Made by a program: the position numbers and the translations under genes | The notes under the pieces: generated by a model | Seen by the model: only the letters and a program-made list of their open reading frames with translations | Databases searched by the model: none | What the model was told of the DNA's origin: nothing | Sequence record: MZ375356.1 | Reading direction: 5' to 3' (one strand) | Source of the DNA: Escherichia phage T4 | Length of the DNA stretch: 64,000 nt | Part shown: piece by piece, positions 4,641-62,526 of the stretch | Layout: the number at the start of each line of letters is the position of its first letter | Numbering within the stretch: position 1 is the first letter of the stretch

Positions 4641-4842
4641 TTTTCACCTTTTTATTGATATGTCTTTTTCTATAGACAACTTTTTCTCGAGTTTCAAATT
4701 TATTCTTAGCAGTCATAGCTCGAGCCCATAATACAGCCACTTCTTTTGCCTGTAAGTTTAATTCACGAGCAATTTCAATGAATGACTTTCCAGACTCATG
4801 AAGAGTAAACACCACAACCTCAGTTCTCATAATCAATCTCAT
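4627..4842 (-). CDS. 24.3: hypothetical protein 24.3
   Basis: 71-aa ORF, position. Confidence 0.6.
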   Translation of the reverse strand: MRLIMRTEVVVFTLHESGKSFIEIARELNLQAKEVAVLWARAMTAKNKFETREKVVYRKRHINKKVKNGTV

Positions 4843-6219: not shown

Positions 6220-6748
6220 ATGTACCACTTTGTATATGAAACAACAAATCTAATAAATGGTAAAAAGTATATAGGAAAGCACTCTACTGATGACTTGAAT
6301 GATGGTTACCTTGGTTCCGGTAAGGCAATTCAGCAGGCTATAAAGAAATATGGTGAAAACAATTTCTCTAGAACAATACTAAAAGAGTTTAAAACTTCCG
6401 AAGAAGCGTACATGTATGAAGAAGAAATTATAACTCCTGAACTAATAAAAAGCAAAAATTATAATATGAAACCTGGTGGAATTGGTGGAATTGGTGGAAT
6501 TGTTATGACTACAGATGTTATAGCAAAGATGAAAGAATCTTCCGCTAAAAGATTTGAAAACTCACCGGGCACGGTATTAGGTAAAACTTGTTACTAATGG
6601 AACTAAAAATATTTTTATTAAACCTGGAGAACTTGTTCCAGAAGGATTTGTAAAAGGGATGGTTCATCCTAATAGAAAGTCCAGAAAAGGATGTAAAGTC
6701 AAACCGACTACCACAGGAACTTTTTGGGTCAATAATGGCGCAAAATAA
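6220..6748 (+). pseudogene. segE: GIY-YIG homing endonuclease SegE-like, at least two frameshifts
   Basis: ORF 6220..6597 has GIY-YIG motif (MYHFVYETTNLINGKKYIG); Seg-type C-terminal motif (IFIKPGELVPEGFVKGM) continues in the next frame to 6748; a second copy of that motif is in the third frame running into uvsW. Confidence 0.7.
6475..6501 (+). repeat. 9-bp tandem repeat (GGTGGAATT)x3 inside segE
   Basis: three perfect tandem copies encoding GGIGGIGGI. Confidence 0.9.
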
Positions 6749-9505: not shown

Positions 9506-9549
9506 TTGTTATTGGTTGTTATTGGATGTTATTGGATGTTATTGGATGG
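9506..9549. repeat. tandem decamer repeat (TTGTTATTGG/ATGTTATTGG) x4 plus partial copy
   Basis: seen directly; lies in the uvsY upstream region between uvsY and gene 25. Confidence 0.9.
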
Positions 9550-17637: not shown

Positions 17638-19686
17638 TTATCCTTGAACGAACTTGTAAGGCATGTTTGCAATATCTATGCAAGACGCAATAATTCCAAG
17701 AGATGATTCTACTTTCTGTTTAACATTTGATGAAACAAATGATGCAAAGTCAACTCTATCTTCTATATCACCTGTCATTGTAACCAATTCACCAGTTTCC
17801 ATTAAATGGTCTCCGTCATAGATTACCGATTCGGTGAGTTCTTCTGTGGTCATAACTTCAGCTTGAATAAGCTTGTTGTTAGTTTTAACTGTTCCATCAT
17901 TGTAAGATGCATCGGTTATTTTATTAACTTTGACCATTAATCCACGTGGCAAAATGACTTCCATTTCATTTGAAGGCGCTAAACTTCCACCGGGTAAAAC
18001 AACATTGACCTTATCAGCCCCAGTAATAACCCATCCAATTCCAACTAAATTATCGCTAGAATTTACAAGTCCTTCATCAGTTTTATCAATAGAAACGCTT
18101 AAACGCTTTTCGTCTGGTAAAACACCTATAGATGAATCAGTCATCCAAGTACCAAAAATATTTGGATATAATGATGTTGACACAAAGTTTCTAAAATAAA
18201 AAACTCGATTTTTTACCATTGCTTCGTATATTGAAGGTAACATTCGTTGTGAACGATACAAAGTAATACCTTTTGGTAATCGTTCACCATTTTTAAAGGC
18301 TGAATCTAAATTATCAATAGCTTTTTCTATGTCAGATGCTGTCAAAATACTTGTACGCTCATCTGGATTATATAATCCCAAAAGAGCATTATTTATGTCT
18401 ACATATCCTGAACCTACGTATTCACGAATTCCGCGTTTTTGCGCTGGTGTGTATTTAGATGAATCTTTATTTTCGACTATAGGATGTAATGACCATCCAG
18501 CGGTAAGAGCATATCCACGTAATTCTCTTCGAATAATCTTTGTTTTTATTGCATTCCAAGAATTTTGTACTAACTCATTTGCAGCATCTTGGTTTAAATG
18601 CGAATGTTTGTTAATATTTCTTTCAAACCAAGCACCCTTATATTTTTCTAAAGTATCATCGACGATAGAAGCAATAGTTTCTAAGGTTTTTATTGAAGTA
18701 ATAGATTCTTTTCGTAATCTTTCTAAAGCTTTATTTTTTATTTCTGCGTTAATAATGGATTCTTTATCTTCAGGAATTATAGAAGCTTCTCTGAATGCCA
18801 TCCCAGCTGTAACACTGCTAAGAGCATTCTCTAGTGCAAATCCTGAAGTAGAAATTACCGTTAATTCATTAGAATCAGAAATTAAAGGCGCGTCCGCTGG
18901 TTTATTTAATTCGGCCGCTGAAGCCTCAAATTTTTGAAACATTGGTGTTTCAAATCTAGAAGATTCCAATGACTGACTTTGCGCAATTGCTCTACGGGAA
19001 ATTTTAACTTTAACGATTACAGCTTGGTCAGAACGTTTATCATTTTCTTGCGCAATAGATGCTGCAATTGCCTCATTTTTAGTTACTTGAGCCCCAGTAT
19101 CTTTATTGATATAAACATCACCGACCTTCGATTCAACTTTAGTAAAGAGCTCGGTACTAATTTCCGGAACTCCTGGAATGTCTTCTAGTGATACATTTTT
19201 GCGATGTATAAGAATATATGCATACTTTTTATCGTAATCCCAGAGTTCCTTAAGAAGGACGTATCTACCACCTGAACGACTACGGATAAGTCTATCAGCA
19301 ATAACTTGAATTTGTCGAGCTTGGCCAGCAGTTTTAGACTTAAGAATACGGAGCATACAGGCATCAATTTTATACTGGCGCATTGTTTGCATTGCAACAG
19401 TAAAAACTGAATTGATATAATTAATTGGGCTTGGACCAAGACCTTTTAATTTAGCAATTGAACCTTTAGCAGTTAATGTAAAAGGAACAATATGCATCAT
19501 TTTATCGCCCATCTTTAAATCACGATTAGTATCACCTCCAGATGTATAGGTACATAAACGAAAGCCTGGTTGTTCAATTGCATCATCAACATGAACTGAA
19601 AAAATTTGCGGTATTTTCTTCTTTGGATATAAGTTTGTAATTGGAAGAGTAGTATCTTCGTCAAATAATTCTGTAATAAGTTCCAT
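17638..19686 (-). CDS. alt: Alt ADP-ribosyltransferase (packaged, injected)
   Basis: 683-codon ORF (682 aa from second Met), position before gene 30. Confidence 0.9.
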   Translation of the reverse strand: MELITELFDEDTTLPITNLYPKKKIPQIFSVHVDDAIEQPGFRLCTYTSGGDTNRDLKMGDKMMHIVPFTLTAKGSIAKLKGLGPSPINYINSVFTVAMQTMRQYKIDACMLRILKSKTAGQARQIQVIADRLIRSRSGGRYVLLKELWDYDKKYAYILIHRKNVSLEDIPGVPEISTELFTKVESKVGDVYINKDTGAQVTKNEAIAASIAQENDKRSDQAVIVKVKISRRAIAQSQSLESSRFETPMFQKFEASAAELNKPADAPLISDSNELTVISTSGFALENALSSVTAGMAFREASIIPEDKESIINAEIKNKALERLRKESITSIKTLETIASIVDDTLEKYKGAWFERNINKHSHLNQDAANELVQNSWNAIKTKIIRRELRGYALTAGWSLHPIVENKDSSKYTPAQKRGIREYVGSGYVDINNALLGLYNPDERTSILTASDIEKAIDNLDSAFKNGERLPKGITLYRSQRMLPSIYEAMVKNRVFYFRNFVSTSLYPNIFGTWMTDSSIGVLPDEKRLSVSIDKTDEGLVNSSDNLVGIGWVITGADKVNVVLPGGSLAPSNEMEVILPRGLMVKVNKITDASYNDGTVKTNNKLIQAEVMTTEELTESVIYDGDHLMETGELVTMTGDIEDRVDFASFVSSNVKQKVESSLGIIASCIDIANMPYKFVQG

Positions 19687-19714
19687 CATATCCTCTCTAG
19701 TGTTTATTCTATTC

Positions 19715-19722
19715 TATTTATA
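19715..19722 (-). promoter_or_regulatory. late promoter TATAAATA (minus) upstream of alt
   Basis: TATAAATA on minus strand 26 nt upstream of alt ATG. Confidence 0.6.
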
Positions 19723-19727
19723 AAATT

Positions 19728-19745
19728 AAAGGCCCGAAGGCCTTT
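19728..19745 (-). terminator. hairpin terminator after ORF 19744..19932
   Basis: AAAGGCC-CGAA-GGCCTTT followed on minus strand by T-rich run. Confidence 0.5.
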
Positions 19746-19932
19746 AATAATCTATTGGTAAGAGAGTACGATATATTTCAAACTTTGGACCTTTTTCATA
19801 AGCATCAAATGTTTCTGTGAATTTATTATAAGCATATGCATCTATAAATTCAATCATGATTTGTGATACAGAAGTAGAAACATCTCCACCTTCTTTTTGA
19901 GCCACGACAATTGTTTCTAAGTAAGCTTTCAT
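19744..19932 (-). CDS. small hypothetical protein between alt and gene 30
   Basis: 62-aa ORF, overlaps gene 30 stop. Confidence 0.45.
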   Translation of the reverse strand: MKAYLETIVVAQKEGGDVSTSVSQIMIEFIDAYAYNKFTETFDAYEKGPKFEIYRTLLPIDY

Positions 19933-21392
19933 AGACCAGTTACCTCATGAAAATCACCAAATACATCTTCGAATGTATTAGCTTTAGTTTTATCTTCACG
20001 TAAACGAATCGCAATCGGAAGAAATAATTTAACGTAATCAGTGCGGCCATCAGATTTTAACCAACCGTTGCATTCGCACTCTAGAATTTTTCCAATATAA
20101 TAATTTTGGTTTTCCATAATGCGAGTACGGTCAAGTTCATGCGATTTTACACCGGCTTTATCTTTTAAGCCTGAACCAGCATTTACCTTAATTTTTCCAC
20201 ACTCTGACTCAAGAATAAATCCACCCGCTTTAGTAGGGTCTTTACGGTGAGGATAAATTCCTACAATTTTTAAATCAACATCAATTACTTCTTTAAATTT
20301 ATAAAGATTTTTTGAACGAGCATTTTCCCATAATCCATCGATATTTTTGAGAATAATACCTTCAAGACCTTGGTCAATATACTTTTTATAAATTACCTTA
20401 GCTTCATCTAGGTTATTTACTACCTGGTTTTCAATTAAAATTACTTTATCATATCCAGATGTCATTTGTTCTAGTTTAGAAAAACGTACATCATATTTCA
20501 AACGAAATGCAGGAAGACTGTATATTTCTACCAACGGGACATAATCCCAGACCTGAAACTTCATGCATTGTGCTTCTTTTTCAGAAATGGTTCCCTTTAA
20601 AGATTTATTGGCGATTCCATTAGAAGCAGTACGTGATTCAGCTACTTCGGCGAATTCTTTAGCTTTACTGTTTTCAGGATAAGCATCAAAAAGAAAATCT
20701 AGGCCTTCTGGCTCCTTTTTAACTTGCTCATGGTATACCAATTCGCCATCAATCAACACACCTTCTGGATGAATCTGGCGGGCTTCAGCGGTCATTTTAA
20801 TTAACTCTTCCTTAAGAAGATCTAATCCTAGATATTCATTACCAGCTCGTGATAAAAGACGAACATCATCTAATTCATCACCTCTAACTTCAGCAAAACA
20901 CCGAGCTCCATCAGCTTTTAACTGAGCAAAGGCTGGAAATTTGATATTCTTATTAATGCCTTTTTCATCATAAGAACTTGCGAGCATTTGAGGTTGTTCA
21001 GGAATTAAACCTGGCCAAACTTTGTTTGCAATAGATACTGAAGCACCACATTCAAGGTCTCGCATCATCACTCGACGCAAAACTTCAACATCATCTTTTT
21101 TACCATCGGTGATATATCCAGTTAATTCCTCAATTGCTGCATTTCCAGTCAATTTCCGAGTAGCTAATGTGAATTCAATGAAGTCAAGCATATCGGTAAG
21201 AGTCAACATTCCAAAACTCTGGGTAGCAATACCAGGTTTAGGCCATTTCTTGATATAATACTGTAACCCACGAGAATAAGTCAGACGATATACTCGTTTA
21301 AGCAATTCATTATCTTTATTCTTTTCAAGAATTGCTTGCTTCTGTTTAGTTGAACCAATAGATGCTATTTCGTTCAGAATTTTAAGAATCAT
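19929..21392 (-). CDS. 30: ATP-dependent DNA ligase
   Basis: 487-aa ORF with KADGAR adenylation motif; matches T4 DNA ligase. Confidence 0.95.
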   Translation of the reverse strand: MILKILNEIASIGSTKQKQAILEKNKDNELLKRVYRLTYSRGLQYYIKKWPKPGIATQSFGMLTLTDMLDFIEFTLATRKLTGNAAIEELTGYITDGKKDDVEVLRRVMMRDLECGASVSIANKVWPGLIPEQPQMLASSYDEKGINKNIKFPAFAQLKADGARCFAEVRGDELDDVRLLSRAGNEYLGLDLLKEELIKMTAEARQIHPEGVLIDGELVYHEQVKKEPEGLDFLFDAYPENSKAKEFAEVAESRTASNGIANKSLKGTISEKEAQCMKFQVWDYVPLVEIYSLPAFRLKYDVRFSKLEQMTSGYDKVILIENQVVNNLDEAKVIYKKYIDQGLEGIILKNIDGLWENARSKNLYKFKEVIDVDLKIVGIYPHRKDPTKAGGFILESECGKIKVNAGSGLKDKAGVKSHELDRTRIMENQNYYIGKILECECNGWLKSDGRTDYVKLFLPIAIRLREDKTKANTFEDVFGDFHEVTGL

Positions 21393-21658
21393 TGTTCATC
21401 CTTTAGAGTTTGGTTTACAGCTCTATTATAAATCAATTCATCATTAAGCTCAGTCAAAGACCTGTGGTACGTGGTTCTAACTTTATTTCCTTGCATCCAG
21501 TGCTTGATATAAATGAAACCTTGCTCTACACATTTTTTAAAAATTCGTTCGTCTTTTTGAGCTCGGAATTCTGGATTGCATCTAAAAAATTGATTTACGT
21601 GACCGTAATCACGTGTAGTATTACCTTCATTTTCATAAATAGTGTGAACAACAAACAT
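21389..21658 (-). CDS. 30.1: hypothetical protein 30.1
   Basis: 89-aa ORF, position. Confidence 0.5.
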   Translation of the reverse strand: MFVVHTIYENEGNTTRDYGHVNQFFRCNPEFRAQKDERIFKKCVEQGFIYIKHWMQGNKVRTTYHRSLTELNDELIYNRAVNQTLKDEQ

Positions 21659-21996
21659 TAGAATGCTCCTTGGAAAATATTATCACCACAAGTAGGTCTA
21701 TTATACAAATACTCTATACCGCCGGGCTTAATATAGTTCCATGTCTGAAACGGATGCGTCTGATATGGATGATATGGATTATAAGGATTAAATCCAGGAG
21801 TTCTCCAGGTAGTGTTCCAAGGAAAAGAATCGTTTTTAATCATCTTTTCAATTACATCTTTTATAGCTTTTTCACTATCAAAACTTTCTTTATTTTCCTT
21901 TGGTGAAAAAAGCTTATTCTCTACATCGTTCCATGTATAAACTCGCTGAGCAGTTTTTGGAATATTGTCACGCTCTCCTCGAGCCATCCAATACAC
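21658..21996 (-). CDS. 30.2: hypothetical protein 30.2
   Basis: 112-aa ORF, position. Confidence 0.5.
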   Translation of the reverse strand: MYWMARGERDNIPKTAQRVYTWNDVENKLFSPKENKESFDSEKAIKDVIEKMIKNDSFPWNTTWRTPGFNPYNPYHPYQTHPFQTWNYIKPGGIEYLYNRPTCGDNIFQGAF

Positions 21997-22061
21997 AGGA
22001 ACACGTAATATTTCACTCGCGTGATCGCAGTGGTGAGCGAGATCGTCAATAACAAATTACG

Positions 22062-22482
22062 TTATTTCTCTTTTGCTTTTTTGAACAACTCTTCTTTTGA
22101 AGAATCATGACTACACATCAGTACTTCTGAGAAAGCACCAGGAAAAAGAGCATTCAAATTAAATTGACGATTTAATAGAGCGTCAATAGAATCACCCAAT
22201 GCTGTAACAGCAACAAAATTATAATCTTCTTTTAATTTGTTAATTACACAGAGCATCTTTATATGGAGACAAGTAACGAATAAAATCCGAACGATTGTAT
22301 TTTTCAATTAACTTGACGCCAAGTTCTTCATCACAGTTAAAGAGTTTACCAGGAGAAATAAATTTCTCATCTTGGATCATTTTTAAAATATGTTCTAACG
22401 GAAGATTATATTTCTGAGCAAAATAAGGAAGGCCTGATTGCCAGCTTAAACATACTCCATCAATATCAGTTAATAGTAGGCT
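22062..22482 (-). pseudogene. HAD-superfamily phosphatase-like gene in pieces (positional 30.3)
   Basis: HAD motif I (LLLTDIDGV) lies immediately after the upstream stop; motif IV-like GDSIDA is in ORF 22062..22307 in another frame; the only ATG is in a third frame. Confidence 0.5.
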
Positions 22483-22944
22483 TCATAGAGAGTCTCTTAA
22501 TAGGTTTAACACATCAATAAATTCAGCTTCGGTTAGTATTGTATCATCTTTTGTTAGACCACTAGCAATGCTGTGCTTCAAAACTTTTCCTTTCGAGGCT
22601 TGTAATGCATCACGAAAGCCCTTGTTTTGAATCGCTGCTTCAAAATATGCATTTGTGTATAATTCTTTCCACGCCGGGGAGTATCTTGAAAACGGAACTC
22701 CAAGCCAAAAGAGGGTCCCACGGTCCTGAGCTCTAGCATAAGACCTTCCAGCTTGTTGGGCGGCAAGCCCGGATAACCCAAATATACGTTGTTGTTCAAC
22801 ATTTTTCACCTTACACCCTTGGAGGAATCCTTCAAGACCTCCAAATTGAATACCATCCATAACGAAAGGCCATTGGGCGAAATTACTTAATGCACATGAT
22901 GGCCACCTAAAATTGCTTCTAATCTCTAACTCAGACATTTTCAA
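22483..22944 (-). CDS. NADAR/YbiA-like domain protein (positional 30.3')
   Basis: 153-aa ORF; LSNFAQWPFVMDGIQF resembles the YbiA/NADAR signature FSNFAAWPIKVDGKTW. Confidence 0.6.
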   Translation of the reverse strand: MKMSELEIRSNFRWPSCALSNFAQWPFVMDGIQFGGLEGFLQGCKVKNVEQQRIFGLSGLAAQQAGRSYARAQDRGTLFWLGVPFSRYSPAWKELYTNAYFEAAIQNKGFRDALQASKGKVLKHSIASGLTKDDTILTEAEFIDVLNLLRDSL

Positions 22945-23137
22945 TGCTTATAATTTCAACATCAGCCCAATGACCATAGCAAGGAAGACGAAATTCAACT
23001 GGCCAGTTAGGGTCCTTTTCTAATATAATAGACTCAACTTGTGGTTCTTCGTGTTCATCAGTATACGGATTTTTATCTGTTACTTTATATGTGACCTTAA
23101 TGTACTGAATTCCAAAAATCTTATTAATTATATTCAT
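22931..23137 (-). CDS. small hypothetical protein (30.x cluster)
   Basis: 68-aa ORF. Confidence 0.4.
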   Translation of the reverse strand: MNIINKIFGIQYIKVTYKVTDKNPYTDEHEEPQVESIILEKDPNWPVEFRLPCYGHWADVEIISIENV

Positions 23138-23331
23138 ACTAATTCCTTTAATCCGTAGATAGGAGATAATTCATCACCCATACGAAGGTCTTCATTTCCA
23201 TCTACCCAGGAAACAATATAAGCCTCTTTTATTTGAATACCACTCCATTTAAATGGAGGTAGAACCTTAGAAATTAATCCAGGTATACCAACTCCCTTTA
23301 ATTCAACAGTTTGACCTAAAAAGAATTTCAT
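23134..23331 (-). CDS. small hypothetical protein (30.x cluster)
   Basis: 65-aa ORF. Confidence 0.4.
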   Translation of the reverse strand: MKFFLGQTVELKGVGIPGLISKVLPPFKWSGIQIKEAYIVSWVDGNEDLRMGDELSPIYGLKELV

Positions 23332-23617
23332 TAGAACCTCATCTGAAAACCGTGCGATTTAACATTACCGCCGCCAATATCAGAAATGTTAATTTCACGC
23401 GCAATTGAAGGGTCAATGTCAATTTCACGATTGAGTTTAGTGATAGCTAAAGTATCACGCCCATTTACAGTACGGAACTCTAAAGGACAAACCACATCAA
23501 CGTAGTTTTAATCGATTCGCTAGTAAGTTGCAAATGTGCAGGAAGGTCTTTAGGTGCCTTTGAGAAAACCACTTCACAGAAATTTTTGCGGGTATCAAAA
23601 TAAGTAGTCATAAACAT
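23332..23617 (-). pseudogene. small 30.x gene split by frameshift
   Basis: ATG with RBS at 23617 gives MFMTTYFDTRKNFCEVVFSK... which stops after ~45 codons; plausible continuation ...VVCPLEFRTVNGRDTLAITKLNREIDIDPS... is in the next frame. Confidence 0.4.
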
Positions 23618-23707
23618 AATATTTTCCTCAGTAAGGGGCTGAAGCCCCTCATTTTATTTTAAATATCAAATTCATTAAGAACTACATCAAAGATTGCTTC
23701 AAGATGC

Positions 23708-24022
23708 TCAGGTAGCTCTGTTACTCAGAATATGACGAATCCAAGTTTTAACTAAGAGTTTACGATTAGCACCATTCCAGCAAGGATGAGTCCCTAAATC
23801 GCGTTGGCGGAAATCATCATCCAGAGCGATTTTGAAGTTGGAACCTTTCATCGTGATTGAAACCGTGATACCGTTTTCAAATCGCATATAAACGTAGTTA
23901 GGAGTCATATACTGTTCAATTTCGCATACTGATCCATTTTGATGTTTCCAGAGGCAAATAGTATCAATAGAACCTGCAATACCATTAGAAACATATTTAC
24001 GTTCAAAGTTAATGTAGTTCAT
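23708..24022 (-). CDS. hypothetical protein (30.x cluster)
   Basis: 104-aa ORF. Confidence 0.4.
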   Translation of the reverse strand: MNYINFERKYVSNGIAGSIDTICLWKHQNGSVCEIEQYMTPNYVYMRFENGITVSITMKGSNFKIALDDDFRQRDLGTHPCWNGANRKLLVKTWIRHILSNRAT

Positions 24023-24204
24023 TTTTATTCTCCGAGATGTTTAATTGCGGTACAGGTATAATATCATATCCTGTACCAAAGTAAACAATTATTTTACTAC
24101 TTTCCAATGCTGCATGTCAAGTTTACCAACTTTTTTCATCTTCTCAATTAAGCGTTCTGCACGTTGGCGAGCTAACATAATGCCATTCGCCTAATTCATT
24201 TTGT

Positions 24205-24417
24205 TCAATTTTTCCAACGAACTGTATTCAATTCATAAATCCAACCAGTAAAGAAATTATGAACTTGAATTGTAAAGGTGAAATCTGTTCCCATACCTTC
24301 TGTTGTTTCTACTTCAATAATATCACCTTCAACTGCCATTAAGAACCACATAGTTTCATCATATTTACCATTGAAGCATTTAGTTTTAACTGCAGCGTTC
24401 AGATTAATCGTTTTCAT
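24205..24417 (-). CDS. hypothetical protein (30.x cluster)
   Basis: 70-aa ORF preceded by early-type promoter. Confidence 0.45.
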   Translation of the reverse strand: MKTINLNAAVKTKCFNGKYDETMWFLMAVEGDIIEVETTEGMGTDFTFTIQVHNFFTGWIYELNTVRWKN

Positions 24418-24439
24418 TTTATTCTCCTTTGTTTGTGTA

Positions 24440-24474
24440 AGATAATACTATCACAAAGGAACTATACTGTAAAC
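24440..24474 (-). promoter_or_regulatory. early-type promoter (GTTTAC / TAGTAT)
   Basis: minus strand GTTTAC, 18-nt spacer, TAGTAT upstream of ORF start 24417. Confidence 0.45.
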
Positions 24475-24493
24475 AACTTTGTGCAATCTTTGG

Positions 24494-24523
24494 AAAATAA
24501 AAAAGGACTCCCGAAGGAGTCCT
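24494..24523 (-). terminator. hairpin terminator after small basic ORF
   Basis: AGGACTCC-CGAA-GGAGTCCT followed by T-run on minus strand. Confidence 0.7.
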
Positions 24524-24527
24524 CAAC

Positions 24528-24704
24528 TTATGCTTTCTGCTTACCAAAACGAGAAGCATCATCTCGAAGAACCGCACGTGCTCGGCGCATGATCTTCTCA
24601 ACAGTTTGATTGATACGAGAGTTCGACCCACGCTTGTAGCCAGCGCGTTTAGAATCACCAACTTTCTTTTCAACTGCTTTCTTTGCTTTAGCTTGTTTTG
24701 CCAT
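24528..24704 (-). CDS. small highly basic protein (positional 30.9)
   Basis: MAKQAKAKKAVEKKVGDSKRAGYKRG... from ATG; listed ORF 24528..24746 starts at a non-ATG codon. Confidence 0.4.
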   Translation of the reverse strand: MAKQAKAKKAVEKKVGDSKRAGYKRGSNSRINQTVEKIMRRARAVLRDDASRFGKQKA

Positions 24705-24948
24705 TATAAATTCTCTTTTAAATGAAAATGCAGGACTTATTGGCATTGCCTGCGCAAGCCCTCAAGGGGAACATAGGTTTTTGGATATTTAACGACCAGG
24801 ATAACCATAAACCCGTCATCATTCACATTCAAGAGGTACACCGTAAAACTGTCGGGGTCTTAAAACTATAATGATTCGCAAATCATTAATCAGACAGTTC
24901 GACGGCTCCTCGATTTAGCTCACACTAAGGCAGTGAATCTCCAATAAA

Positions 24949-25197
24949 TTACTTCAGTGTTACCACAAAGTGACGAACTGCTTTTCGTGCAGCAGAAGCC
25001 AGAGGCTTAGCATATTTAAGTTCATCTTTTTCCTGAAGCTCAGCAGCTAATGCAGTTTGAGCAGGATTCAGATGTTTGAAATAACGCAGGATTTCAAGAG
25101 CTTCGGCTTCAACATCAATAGATGCGCCATAGTTTTCGTGACCATTATTCCATGCGTTTCGTTGCAGTTCAAGAGCGTGTTGTAATTGTTTAATCAT
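24949..25197 (-). CDS. rIII: rIII lysis-inhibition accessory protein
   Basis: 82-aa ORF immediately before gene 31. Confidence 0.8.
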   Translation of the reverse strand: MIKQLQHALELQRNAWNNGHENYGASIDVEAEALEILRYFKHLNPAQTALAAELQEKDELKYAKPLASAARKAVRHFVVTLK

Positions 25198-25344
25198 TTA
25201 AAAATTCTCGTTAGAGATTAAAACTCGGTAGTCACGTTCTTCTGAATTTCATCTTCTTTCGACAGATCTCTCAGTTGTAGACTACCACATAGAATTGTTC
25301 GGTTAACTTATTATTCCGACACCCAATTCATATTATTATTTATA

Positions 25345-25680
25345 TCACTTATAAAGACACGGAATAGCTTTATAGTGACAGGTAACGAATTTTTGTTTAA
25401 TTTCTTTTGGCTGCTTAAGACCCAGAGCTACAAAAGGATGCGGAACATTTCGAATTTGACCAACTGGAAGAGAAGTCAAATCACCAACTTCGCAGAAACC
25501 TTCAGGAACATCAGGACCGACAGAGTGAACTACACACAGTTCAGGAACTTCACCTTGAACACGTTTACCGATAATAAGTCCTGATTCTGTAACTTCTTCA
25601 TCACCGGCTTGTGCAGGTTCAGAAACTAAAATAACATATTCACCGACAGCACGAATTGGTAGCTGTTGTACTTCAGACAT
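25345..25680 (-). CDS. 31: co-chaperonin gp31 (GroES analogue)
   Basis: 111-aa ORF, size and position. Confidence 0.9.
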
Positions 25681-25733
25681 CGTTTTTCCTTTTTGTTAAC
25701 AGATGAATTAATAACAAATAGTTCTTAAAGCAT

Positions 25734-26042
25734 TTATTTACCAATAAATTGAAGCAAATGCTCAACTTTCATACCATTAACGGAAATCAATTTGTCAATA
25801 GAAAAACCTCGCCACGCACCAAGCTCAACATCAAATACTGGAATCATGTCAGTAGATTCTTTCCGAGTAGATTCAGTCAATTTGCCAGTTTGCATGGTTG
25901 GCATAAAGTCTGCATCACGAGTACCTTTCATAGTACGAATAGTACCATCAGACTTTTCAAAAACTACGTTTGAAACACCCATGGACAATTTAGTTTTCAA
26001 AATTTCACGAATTGCTACTTTCTGCTCAGTTGTCAGTTTCAT
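25734..26042 (-). CDS. 31.1: hypothetical protein 31.1
   Basis: 102-aa ORF, position. Confidence 0.5.
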   Translation of the reverse strand: MKLTTEQKVAIREILKTKLSMGVSNVVFEKSDGTIRTMKGTRDADFMPTMQTGKLTESTRKESTDMIPVFDVELGAWRGFSIDKLISVNGMKVEHLLQFIGK

Positions 26043-40944: not shown

Positions 40945-41037
40945 TTAGCAGTATTGCCGATAGTTGTATAGTACCATAAAGCTTTATGCTTGTAAACCGT
41001 TTTGTCCATAAAGCTTTATGCTTGTAAACCGTTTTGT
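40945..41037 (-). promoter_or_regulatory. early-type promoter region with perfect 32-bp tandem duplication (40974..41005 and 41006..41037)
   Basis: each copy carries GTTTAC -35 and a GCTTTA MotA-box-like motif; only the proximal copy is followed by GGTACTATACAACTATC; element family also at 57760 and 60818. Confidence 0.5.
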
Positions 41038-61744: not shown

Positions 61745-62526
61745 TTATTTAAATTGTTCAGTAACGTCTTCAACTACTTCATATTGGCAGGTACGCATTT
61801 TAGCATCGTTGTAATCAATCGGAATTGATACTACATCGCGAGGATGAACTTTAACTTTTACAACTCGGCTGGTTGAACTACCAAAGTGACGAATATAAGA
61901 TTTAGAACACACATGCAAACCACGAGAACAAGTTTGTGTATCATCGTCATTCACACGAGTACGTGGCATTTTAACTACTACCCGGACTGTTATCAAAGGT
62001 GTTTGAGTGACAGTCAAAGTAATTGCTGCGAACTACTTTCCAAGCATAGAAAACCATCTTCTGTAATTTCAATATCGTTTGCTACCAAGAAATCAAAGAG
62101 TCGAGATACCGCTTTTTGGCTTGGGTTTTCCAACAGATTTTCCAAGAACGGAAAATAAAATTCAAAGTTTTCGCCTTTTTCCATCGAGTCAAGAATACGA
62201 TCAACCAAACCAGACCGCAATTCAATATTTTGATAGAACAAGCTTCCACCTTCAATTCGAACATCGCCGGAAATATATTTTTCAACAGCACGACGAACAT
62301 TAATTTTTTGTGCCGCTTCTTCCAACTTATCCGCTACAAGCAGATTAAGAATTTCCTGGAAGTTTGAATGAGTATTAGGAGTTGCGTTATAAGTTACGCC
62401 ATCAACAGTAATTGAAATGAATTTTTTAGATGCATTCCAAATAATGTCAGATTTAGCAACTGGAGCAATAACTGCATCGCTATTAACTTTAACTGTAATA
62501 TCACCGCTAATAGTAACTTTAGGACG
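61745..62526 (-). pseudogene. rIIB: rIIB remnant: N-terminal ~51 codons absent, internal frameshift near 62017
   Basis: [30 protein letters not shown]... through ...[10 protein letters not shown] (in ORF 62014..62850) then frame change to ...CSRGLHVCSKSYIRHFGSS...EQFK (ORF 61745..62017); remembered N-terminus MYNIKCLTKNEQAEIV not present. Confidence 0.6.

Follow-up and report, generated by a model that had tools for sequence, protein, structure and literature searches.

Phage T4 gene 30.3 (adfN), a published anti-DarTG1 NADAR gene, beside a broken HAD-like gene in a laboratory lineage

The window analysed here, a 64,000-nt stretch of Escherichia phage T4 (sequence record MZ375356.1), carries on its minus strand the genes alt, alt.1, 30, 30.1, 30.2, 30.3 and 30.4 in exactly the order known from T4. 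Our subject is 30.3, a gene published as adfN (anti-DarT factor NADAR), together with its broken neighbour 30.2. A first-pass annotation, drawn up without database searches, had called the open reading frame (ORF) at 22483..22944 (minus strand) NADAR/YbiA-like on account of an LSNFAQWPF-type signature, and had suggested that its product, encoded next to a degraded HAD-phosphatase gene and near the ADP-ribosyltransferase gene alt, could counter ADP-ribosylating host defence (DarTG). The ORF and its signature are indeed present; the ORF contains ALSNFAQWPFVMDGIQFGGLEGF, and the string quoted in that annotation, ALSNFAQWPFVMDGIQF, was found in its protein. Compared with Pfam, the protein matched PF08010 (Phage_30_3, 'Bacteriophage protein GP30.3') at E=1.4e-68, and positions 21900–23200 of the window are 99.1–99.5% identical to phage T4 records at the DNA level (megablast), which together put the ORF far beyond chance. 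With 99% DNA identity to T4 30.3 and its position between 30.4 and 30.2 kept, the ORF is identified as T4 gene 30.3, that is, adfN.

The gene occupies 22483..22938 (minus strand, stop codon included), and its product measures 151 amino acids (aa) in the window compared to 152 aa in T4. The TTG start listed at 22944, which would yield 153 aa, precedes the start annotated in T4 by two codons. The ORF itself stood, but not its upstream limit, as both the T4 annotation and the alignment favour the ATG at 22938, almost certainly the true start. At its other end the ORF reaches the normal stop, and the C-terminal helix (residues 137–150) is present in the model of the window protein. Nested within adfN in the +1 frame is the annotated ORF 30.3′ (22578..22802, minus strand; T4 annotation), 74 codons long here. 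Its T4 version matches Pfam DUF2883, and of 13 close relatives 12 keep the frame open and one (L016) has it interrupted, while another (L011) lacks the start methionine; at the level of sequence, these features argue only weakly for a real second product.

How readily gp30.3 is recognised as a NADAR protein depends on the level at which it is compared. The PF08719 NADAR model matched neither T4 nor window gp30.3 at E≤10, PF08010 being the only match, and a single-sequence search of the PDB with gp30.3 gave a chance-level match only. Both results speak against the assignment and leave the sequence link standing at the family level only. Among 47 gp30.3 homologues gathered from 5.8 billion proteins, however, 22 also matched PF08719 (best E=4.8e-7), and a gp30.3 family profile built from 33 members retrieved from the PDB a single sequence below E=0.01, namely E. 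coli YbiA (2b3w; E=0.0016), which lines up with the family over both the SNF motif and the E-x3-Q-x2-K segment. The fold points the same way. An AlphaFold2 model of the window allele (predicted local distance difference test, pLDDT, 94; predicted template modelling score, pTM, 0.88) has a strand and helix order consistent with the NADAR (YbiA) fold, and a Foldseek search of the PDB with it returned YbiA 2b3w (probability 1.00, TM 0.69) along with the NADARs of Geobacter lovleyi (8bat) and Phytophthora nicotianae (8bau; probability 0.99 each). The next match after these three NADAR structures had a probability of 0.03, and no other exceeded 0.04.

Residue conservation completes the picture. S18, N19, E36, G37, F38, Q40, Q50 and H123 are invariant in the gp30.3 family alignment and K43 is kept in at least 90% of the sequences; E36 and K43 were targeted by mutation in PMC11825919, and replacement of the last-strand Glu/Asp by His has been described for phage NADARs (PMC11543638, PMC11125620). 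The window allele retains E36, K43 and the phage-type His (H122 here, corresponding to H123 in T4), and thus the full NADAR catalytic set of the EGF glutamate, a lysine seven residues further on and a last-strand histidine. Taken together, sequence, fold and catalytic residues support NADAR membership of gp30.3 at the family level. The first-pass annotation had named a profile search and a structure prediction as checks on its call, and either a missing NADAR hit or missing catalytic residues as grounds for giving it up. For the single protein the profile hit is literally missing; the family-level evidence is nevertheless clear, with 22 of 47 members matching, the model is confident and has three solved NADARs as its best matches, and the catalytic residues are all there. 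The NADAR/YbiA-like call is thereby borne out.

The function of this gene is already published, such that the idea of a counter-measure against host ADP-ribosylation was right without being new. Phage gp30.3 proteins were placed bioinformatically in the NADAR superfamily by de Souza and Aravind, according to the passages citing that work in PMC11125620 and PMC11543638. In vitro, T4 gp30.3 hydrolyses guanine-linked ADP-ribose (guanine-ADPr) and not thymidine-ADPr (Suskiewicz group, Toxins 2024, PMC11125620). Johannesman et al. (Nat Commun 2025, PMC11825919) then identified 30.3, which they renamed adfN, as the gene behind DarTG1 resistance in T-even phages. In their work, T4 and T2 without adfN formed no plaques on DarTG1 cells, and purified AdfN took ADP-ribose off DarT1-modified DNA; oligonucleotides bearing guanine-ADPr were likewise cleared by the purified protein (PMC11825919, PMC11125620). 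RB69 has an allele of its own that a frameshift truncates and that is inactivated by the loss of the C-terminal helix; plasmid-borne adfN fully rescued this phage, and the rescue was weakened by E36A, K43A or C-terminal truncation of AdfN. AdfN, a guanine-specific DNA ADP-ribosylglycohydrolase, was both necessary and sufficient for T-even phages to resist DarTG1 (PMC11825919, PMC11125620, HIDEN-SEQ preprint), and it did not counter DarTG2 (PMC11825919). Independently, transposon insertions in 30.3 were lost under DarTG1 in a HIDEN-SEQ screen (preprint), with a log2 fold change of −7.25 and an adjusted P value of 0. These and all further DarTG1 values from that preprint refer to one of its tables, which we took as the DarTG1 set (Data S6) since 30.3 is the hit there, as its main text describes. 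On laboratory hosts adfN is dispensable, 27 of 28 insertion sites being tolerated (HIDEN-SEQ).

In mechanistic terms, host DarT1 puts ADP-ribose on guanine bases of phage DNA, a modification that blocks phage DNA replication; AdfN, as a small stand-alone enzyme of NADAR fold, hydrolyses the N-glycosidic link and restores the base, and phage replication can then proceed in DarTG1-carrying cells. Two published observations do not sit easily with so simple a scheme: AdfN did not detoxify DarT1 in uninfected cells, and non-T-even phages were helped only weakly (both PMC11825919). They imply an additional requirement in vivo, in line with the authors' view that AdfN needs a further T-even factor to be fully active (PMC11825919).

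Directly downstream of adfN, and overlapping its stop codon by 4 bp, lies the co-transcribed gene 30.2 (21658..22486, minus strand; T4 annotation and alignment), which encodes a HAD-superfamily, deoxyribonucleotidase-like protein and is inactivated here. In the T4 reference, 30.2 is intact and 278 aa long. The window copy has suffered four 2-bp deletions, after 22048, 22062, 22245 and 22471, and the frame of its native ATG ends after 6 codons. What remains are five pieces: aa 1–5; aa 6–81 with motif I (DIDGV) and the cap helices (22246..22473); aa 80–142 with motif II (T96) and motif III (K132) (22065..22253); aa ~143–148, about six codons; and aa 149–278 with motif IV (DD) and a variable C-terminal tail (21658..22050), all on the minus strand. 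A degraded HAD-motif gene had been anticipated immediately downstream of the NADAR gene, and the gene is in fact broken and adjoining, albeit in five pieces rather than three and extending to 21658, some 400 bp past 22062. Of the two strings taken for HAD motifs, DIDGV is motif I, in which D8 and D10 are invariant, but GDSIDA is not catalytic; motif IV is YIDD (D150, D151), encoded beyond the 22062 boundary of the first-pass annotation.

The intact protein resembles HAD phosphatases in its conserved residues and its predicted fold. All 43 gp30.2 homologues come from T4-like phages; D8, D10, G11 and K132 are invariant among them and T96, D150 and D151 are present in at least 90%, such that the family possesses all four HAD motifs (DxDGV, T, K, DD). 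Searches with gp30.2 itself returned no Pfam family at E≤10, chance-level matches only in the PDB (single sequence) and, among PHROGs, phrog_420 alone, which is labelled 'unknown function'. With the family profile, the best PDB match was the cytosolic 5′(3′)-deoxyribonucleotidase 2jao at a weak E=0.0097, while 4l57, 6g2n and 2i7d scored weaker still. An AlphaFold2 model of a 97%-identical homologue reached a pLDDT of at least 82 over residues 1–200 (above 90 up to ~190) and gave 95 Foldseek matches in the PDB at E≤0.001. The best 50 of these 95 were nearly all natural HAD-superfamily enzymes, all with probability 1.00, and the lowest root-mean-square deviations among the top matches belonged to deoxyribonucleotidases (4.3–4.6 Å). 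It is thus justified to describe gp30.2 as HAD phosphatase-like and, by profile and fold, closest to the 5′(3′)-deoxyribonucleotidases. We also noticed that its tail (residues ~200–278, window 21658–21890) is rich in Pro, Tyr, Trp and Asn and predicted to be disordered (pLDDT <50), and that it differs greatly in length and sequence among T4-like phages; the HAD core is conserved.

The broken state of 30.2 is not a natural condition. A natural pseudogene was rejected as an explanation, given that an intact gene is found in the T4 reference, teqhad, all 12 close relatives that have it in full and the apparent ancestral stock SRR22215992; the window copy is a null allele whose damage is peculiar to this laboratory lineage. 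Nor is 30.2 required for the anti-DarTG1 function, its insertions being neutral under DarTG1 in the HIDEN-SEQ table (log2 fold change −0.12, P=0.61). Of 80 viral loci of the gp30.3 family, just 19, all of them T4-like, have a 30.2-like gene no more than 6 kb from the NADAR gene. On these two grounds, we rejected 30.2 as a partner or missing cofactor of AdfN. The locus as a whole is, with high confidence, best explained as adfN with a NADAR-type anti-DarTG1 function, followed by a HAD-fold gene that this function does not require and that is null here.

Three other functions for gp30.3 were weighed against this account. That the best structural match of the protein is YbiA, that 30.2 and 30.3 overlap by 4 bp and that one 30.2 homologue carries the automatic annotation 'FMN phosphatase YigB (HAD superfamily)' could suggest a metabolic N-glycosidase of YbiA type, with riboflavin-pathway intermediates as substrates and the adjacent HAD phosphatase as partner, the two serving metabolite repair. 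This we consider extremely improbable: gp30.3 has His in place of the last-strand Glu that defines YbiA, removal of ADP-ribose from DNA by gp30.3 is published with both genetics and biochemistry, profile and fold of 30.2 are closest to deoxyribonucleotidases, and both the rarity of 30.2-like neighbours and the lack of a 30.2 phenotype under DarTG1 in the HIDEN-SEQ table argue against the pairing. Hardly more credible is an eraser of the phage's own Alt, ModA and ModB modifications of host or phage macromolecules. It would draw on the position of adfN in the same early-gene block as alt (17638..19689, minus strand; T4 annotation), the gene for the packaged ADP-ribosyltransferase, at a distance of 2.8 kb. 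The first-pass annotation had likewise read meaning into this nearness, which did not survive: tested NADARs are specific for guanine-ADPr on DNA, whereas Alt targets proteins, and alt insertions were neutral in the HIDEN-SEQ table (log2 fold change −0.01) under DarTG1, where adfN is essential, a value that led us to reject a functional alt–adfN link for DarTG1. Moreover, the DNA ligase gene and two others, alt.1 and 30.1 (as well as 30.2), separate alt from adfN, and most of the sampled phage NADAR loci have no T4-like neighbourhood. Slightly less remote, though still quite unlikely, is that gp30.3 mainly degrades soluble ADP-ribose-derived immune signals besides repairing DNA. Comparative genomics predicted such a role for phage NADARs ahead of the experiments (PMC9503650), and the T-even context needed in vivo could count in its favour. 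No such activity of gp30.3 has been reported, however, and the known data are explained by the DarTG1 phenotype together with the in vitro activity on DNA.

A more serious alternative concerns the window allele rather than the gene. Compared to NC_000866, window adfN lacks one ACG unit of an ACGACG repeat (in-frame 3-bp deletion at 22785..22786, minus strand), which removes one arginine of the R51–R52 pair and keeps the frame. The same allele (hereafter Delta-Arg) occurs in OL964745 and in a contig assembled from SRR22215992. The missing residue falls within helix 47–54 of AdfN. In a survey of 114 family members with the EGF(L/I)Q motif, Q50 stood at E36+14 and G58 at E36+22 in 113, whereas the Q50–G58 stretch of the window allele is one residue shorter, and no aligned natural homologue has a gap at the R51–R52 position. 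These features count against a fully functional protein and, with adfN dispensable on laboratory hosts such that a defective allele could persist in a stock, leave a real though minor chance that window AdfN is crippled (a hypomorph or null) and that we are looking at a decayed anti-DarTG1 locus with adfN weakened and 30.2 dead. Several observations tell against this. The lost arginine is one of an adjacent pair at a variable and probably surface-exposed position, the columns after Q50 reading RR, QR, LR, LK or VE across homologues; the catalytic and invariant residues are all kept; Delta-Arg AdfN is confidently predicted to fold, which is weak evidence; and adfN stayed in frame although neighbouring genes gathered frameshifts. 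We infer that the one-residue-shorter AdfN of the window probably still works. The allele is nonetheless worth knowing for anyone running DarTG experiments with this T4 lineage.

Upstream of adfN, gene 30.4 (22931..23137, minus strand; T4 annotation and alignment) is intact and encodes 68 aa, with one substitution relative to the reference, R41K (window 23016). In the HIDEN-SEQ table, 30.4 was mildly depleted under DarTG1 (log2 fold change −1.79, adjusted P=0.014) and was the only 30.x gene besides 30.3 to be so, 30.1, 30.2 and 30.6–30.9 being neutral there. Being confined to the closest T-even relatives, 30.4 could conceivably be the T-even factor that potentiates AdfN, an idea to which we give little credence. 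Alternatively, insertions in 30.4 may be depleted through polarity on adfN, whose start is overlapped by the 3′ end of 30.4. Gene neighbourhoods do not discriminate here: a search around distant NADARs for homologues of 30.1 and 30.4–30.7 found them only in close T-even relatives.

Among the remaining genes of the block, gene 30 (DNA ligase) lies at 19929–21392 and 30.1 at 21389–21658, both on the minus strand, as is alt.1, between alt and gene 30 (all T4 annotation). Scanning of 19000–26000 against Rfam detected no RNA family, and a promoter and terminator scan of the region gave counts not above those of shuffled sequence. One near-consensus σ70 site was seen at 24091–24120 (minus strand; TTGACA, 18 nt, TAAAAT; 11 of 12 matches), located between 30.8 and 30.7 and pointing into the 30.7-to-30.1 block that includes adfN.

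The damage in 30.2 is one instance of a pattern that runs through the whole window. The record closest to the window, OL964745 ('Mutant Escherichia phage T4 clone T4_7t1'), shares some of its deletions, others being private. Comparison to NC_000866 revealed 58 small deletions (35 of 2 bp, 12 of 3 bp and 11 of 1 bp), e.g. at 1657, 5315, 6591, 22048–22471, 23712, 24172, 27720, 33022, 38404, 39539, 40325, 55909, 59370, 59624 and 61978, and very few lineage-specific substitutions. Frameshifts are confined to dispensable genes or intergenic DNA: they affect segD, segE, hoc, 30.2, 30.6–30.8, cd.2–cd.4, I-TevI, I-TevIII, mobE, frd, frd.2, frd.3, segG, arn.1, 52.1, ac, ndd.1 and rIIB, while the essential genes 29 and 34 have in-frame 3-bp deletions only. 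Four tandem duplications of 9–33 bp were also found relative to the T4 reference, namely 33 bp at 4686 in 24.3, 9 bp at 6474 in segE, 20 bp at 9517 upstream of uvsY near oriF, and 32 bp at 40974 upstream of gene 32. Larger deletions removed ~578 bp inside hoc (~4932), ~340 bp across ndd.2a to ndd.5 (~60630) and ~850 bp over the end and start of the reference (~62511–62523), the last of which fuses rIIB to rIIA through a short stretch of microhomology. This junction is reminiscent of the classical rII fusion deletions.

Sequencing error is an unlikely source of these indels, which are mostly 2–3 bp long and not homopolymer slips; it is further disfavoured by the recurrence of some of them in an independent mutant clone and by the sparing of essential genes from frameshifts. 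Such differences mark this DNA as that of a laboratory T4 mutant from a heavily indel-mutagenised yet viable lineage. A Logan contig of SRR22215992 (L087) carries the adfN Delta-Arg deletion and 30.4 R41K, has none of the 2-bp deletions and leaves 30.2 intact; both changes are thus older than the mutagenesis and characterise the parental stock. Our reading is accordingly of a Delta-Arg T4 stock that probably underwent heavy frameshift-type mutagenesis with selection for viability. As a further observation, ac is frameshifted by its 2-bp deletion (59624). Loss of ac is established in T4 genetics as giving acridine resistance, and the ac frameshift hints at growth or mutagenesis of this lineage in acridine. 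No paper describing the mutant lineage or where it came from was found in the literature.

The broader meaning of the locus is that of a lytic phage using an orphan enzyme of bacterial antitoxin type to erase the DNA modification made by a host defence. The published record begins with the bioinformatic NADAR assignment; activity in vitro followed in 2024 and proof in vivo in 2025, with a transposon screen as independent support. To this our analysis adds that a reading made from sequence alone was confirmed, that the 'degraded' neighbour reflects laboratory damage and not evolutionary decay, a caveat on the Delta-Arg allele and a lead towards 30.4.

Compared with known systems, the closest is T4 AdfN itself (PF08010), which is the same gene at the same position with the same motifs (SNF, EGF, K43 and the last-strand His); the window copy differs by lacking R51 or R52. 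Also close are the DarG1-type NADAR antitoxins (BC4488 family; G. lovleyi 8bat, E. coli C7 NADAR), which share the fold (Foldseek probability 0.99), the chemistry of taking ADP-ribose off guanine in DNA and the target toxin DarT1. Unlike them, AdfN has no N-terminal extension, carries His instead of the last-strand Asp, is not encoded beside a DarT gene and cannot substitute for DarG1 in uninfected cells. For gp30.2, the counterparts are the 5′(3′)-deoxyribonucleotidases (cdN/mdN: 2jao, 2i7d, 1q92), with the HAD core and a helical cap after motif I in common, whereas the extra C-terminal tail of ~80 aa, rich in Pro, Tyr and Trp, poorly predicted and variable between phages, sets gp30.2 apart. 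Finally, the N-glycosidases E. coli YbiA (2b3w) and plant COG3236 (PF08719) have the SNF and E-x(3)-Q-x(2)-K motifs in common with gp30.3, yet identity to YbiA is only ~16% and the YbiA-defining Glu is His in gp30.3; the role of YbiA is housekeeping, whereas that of AdfN is counter-defence.

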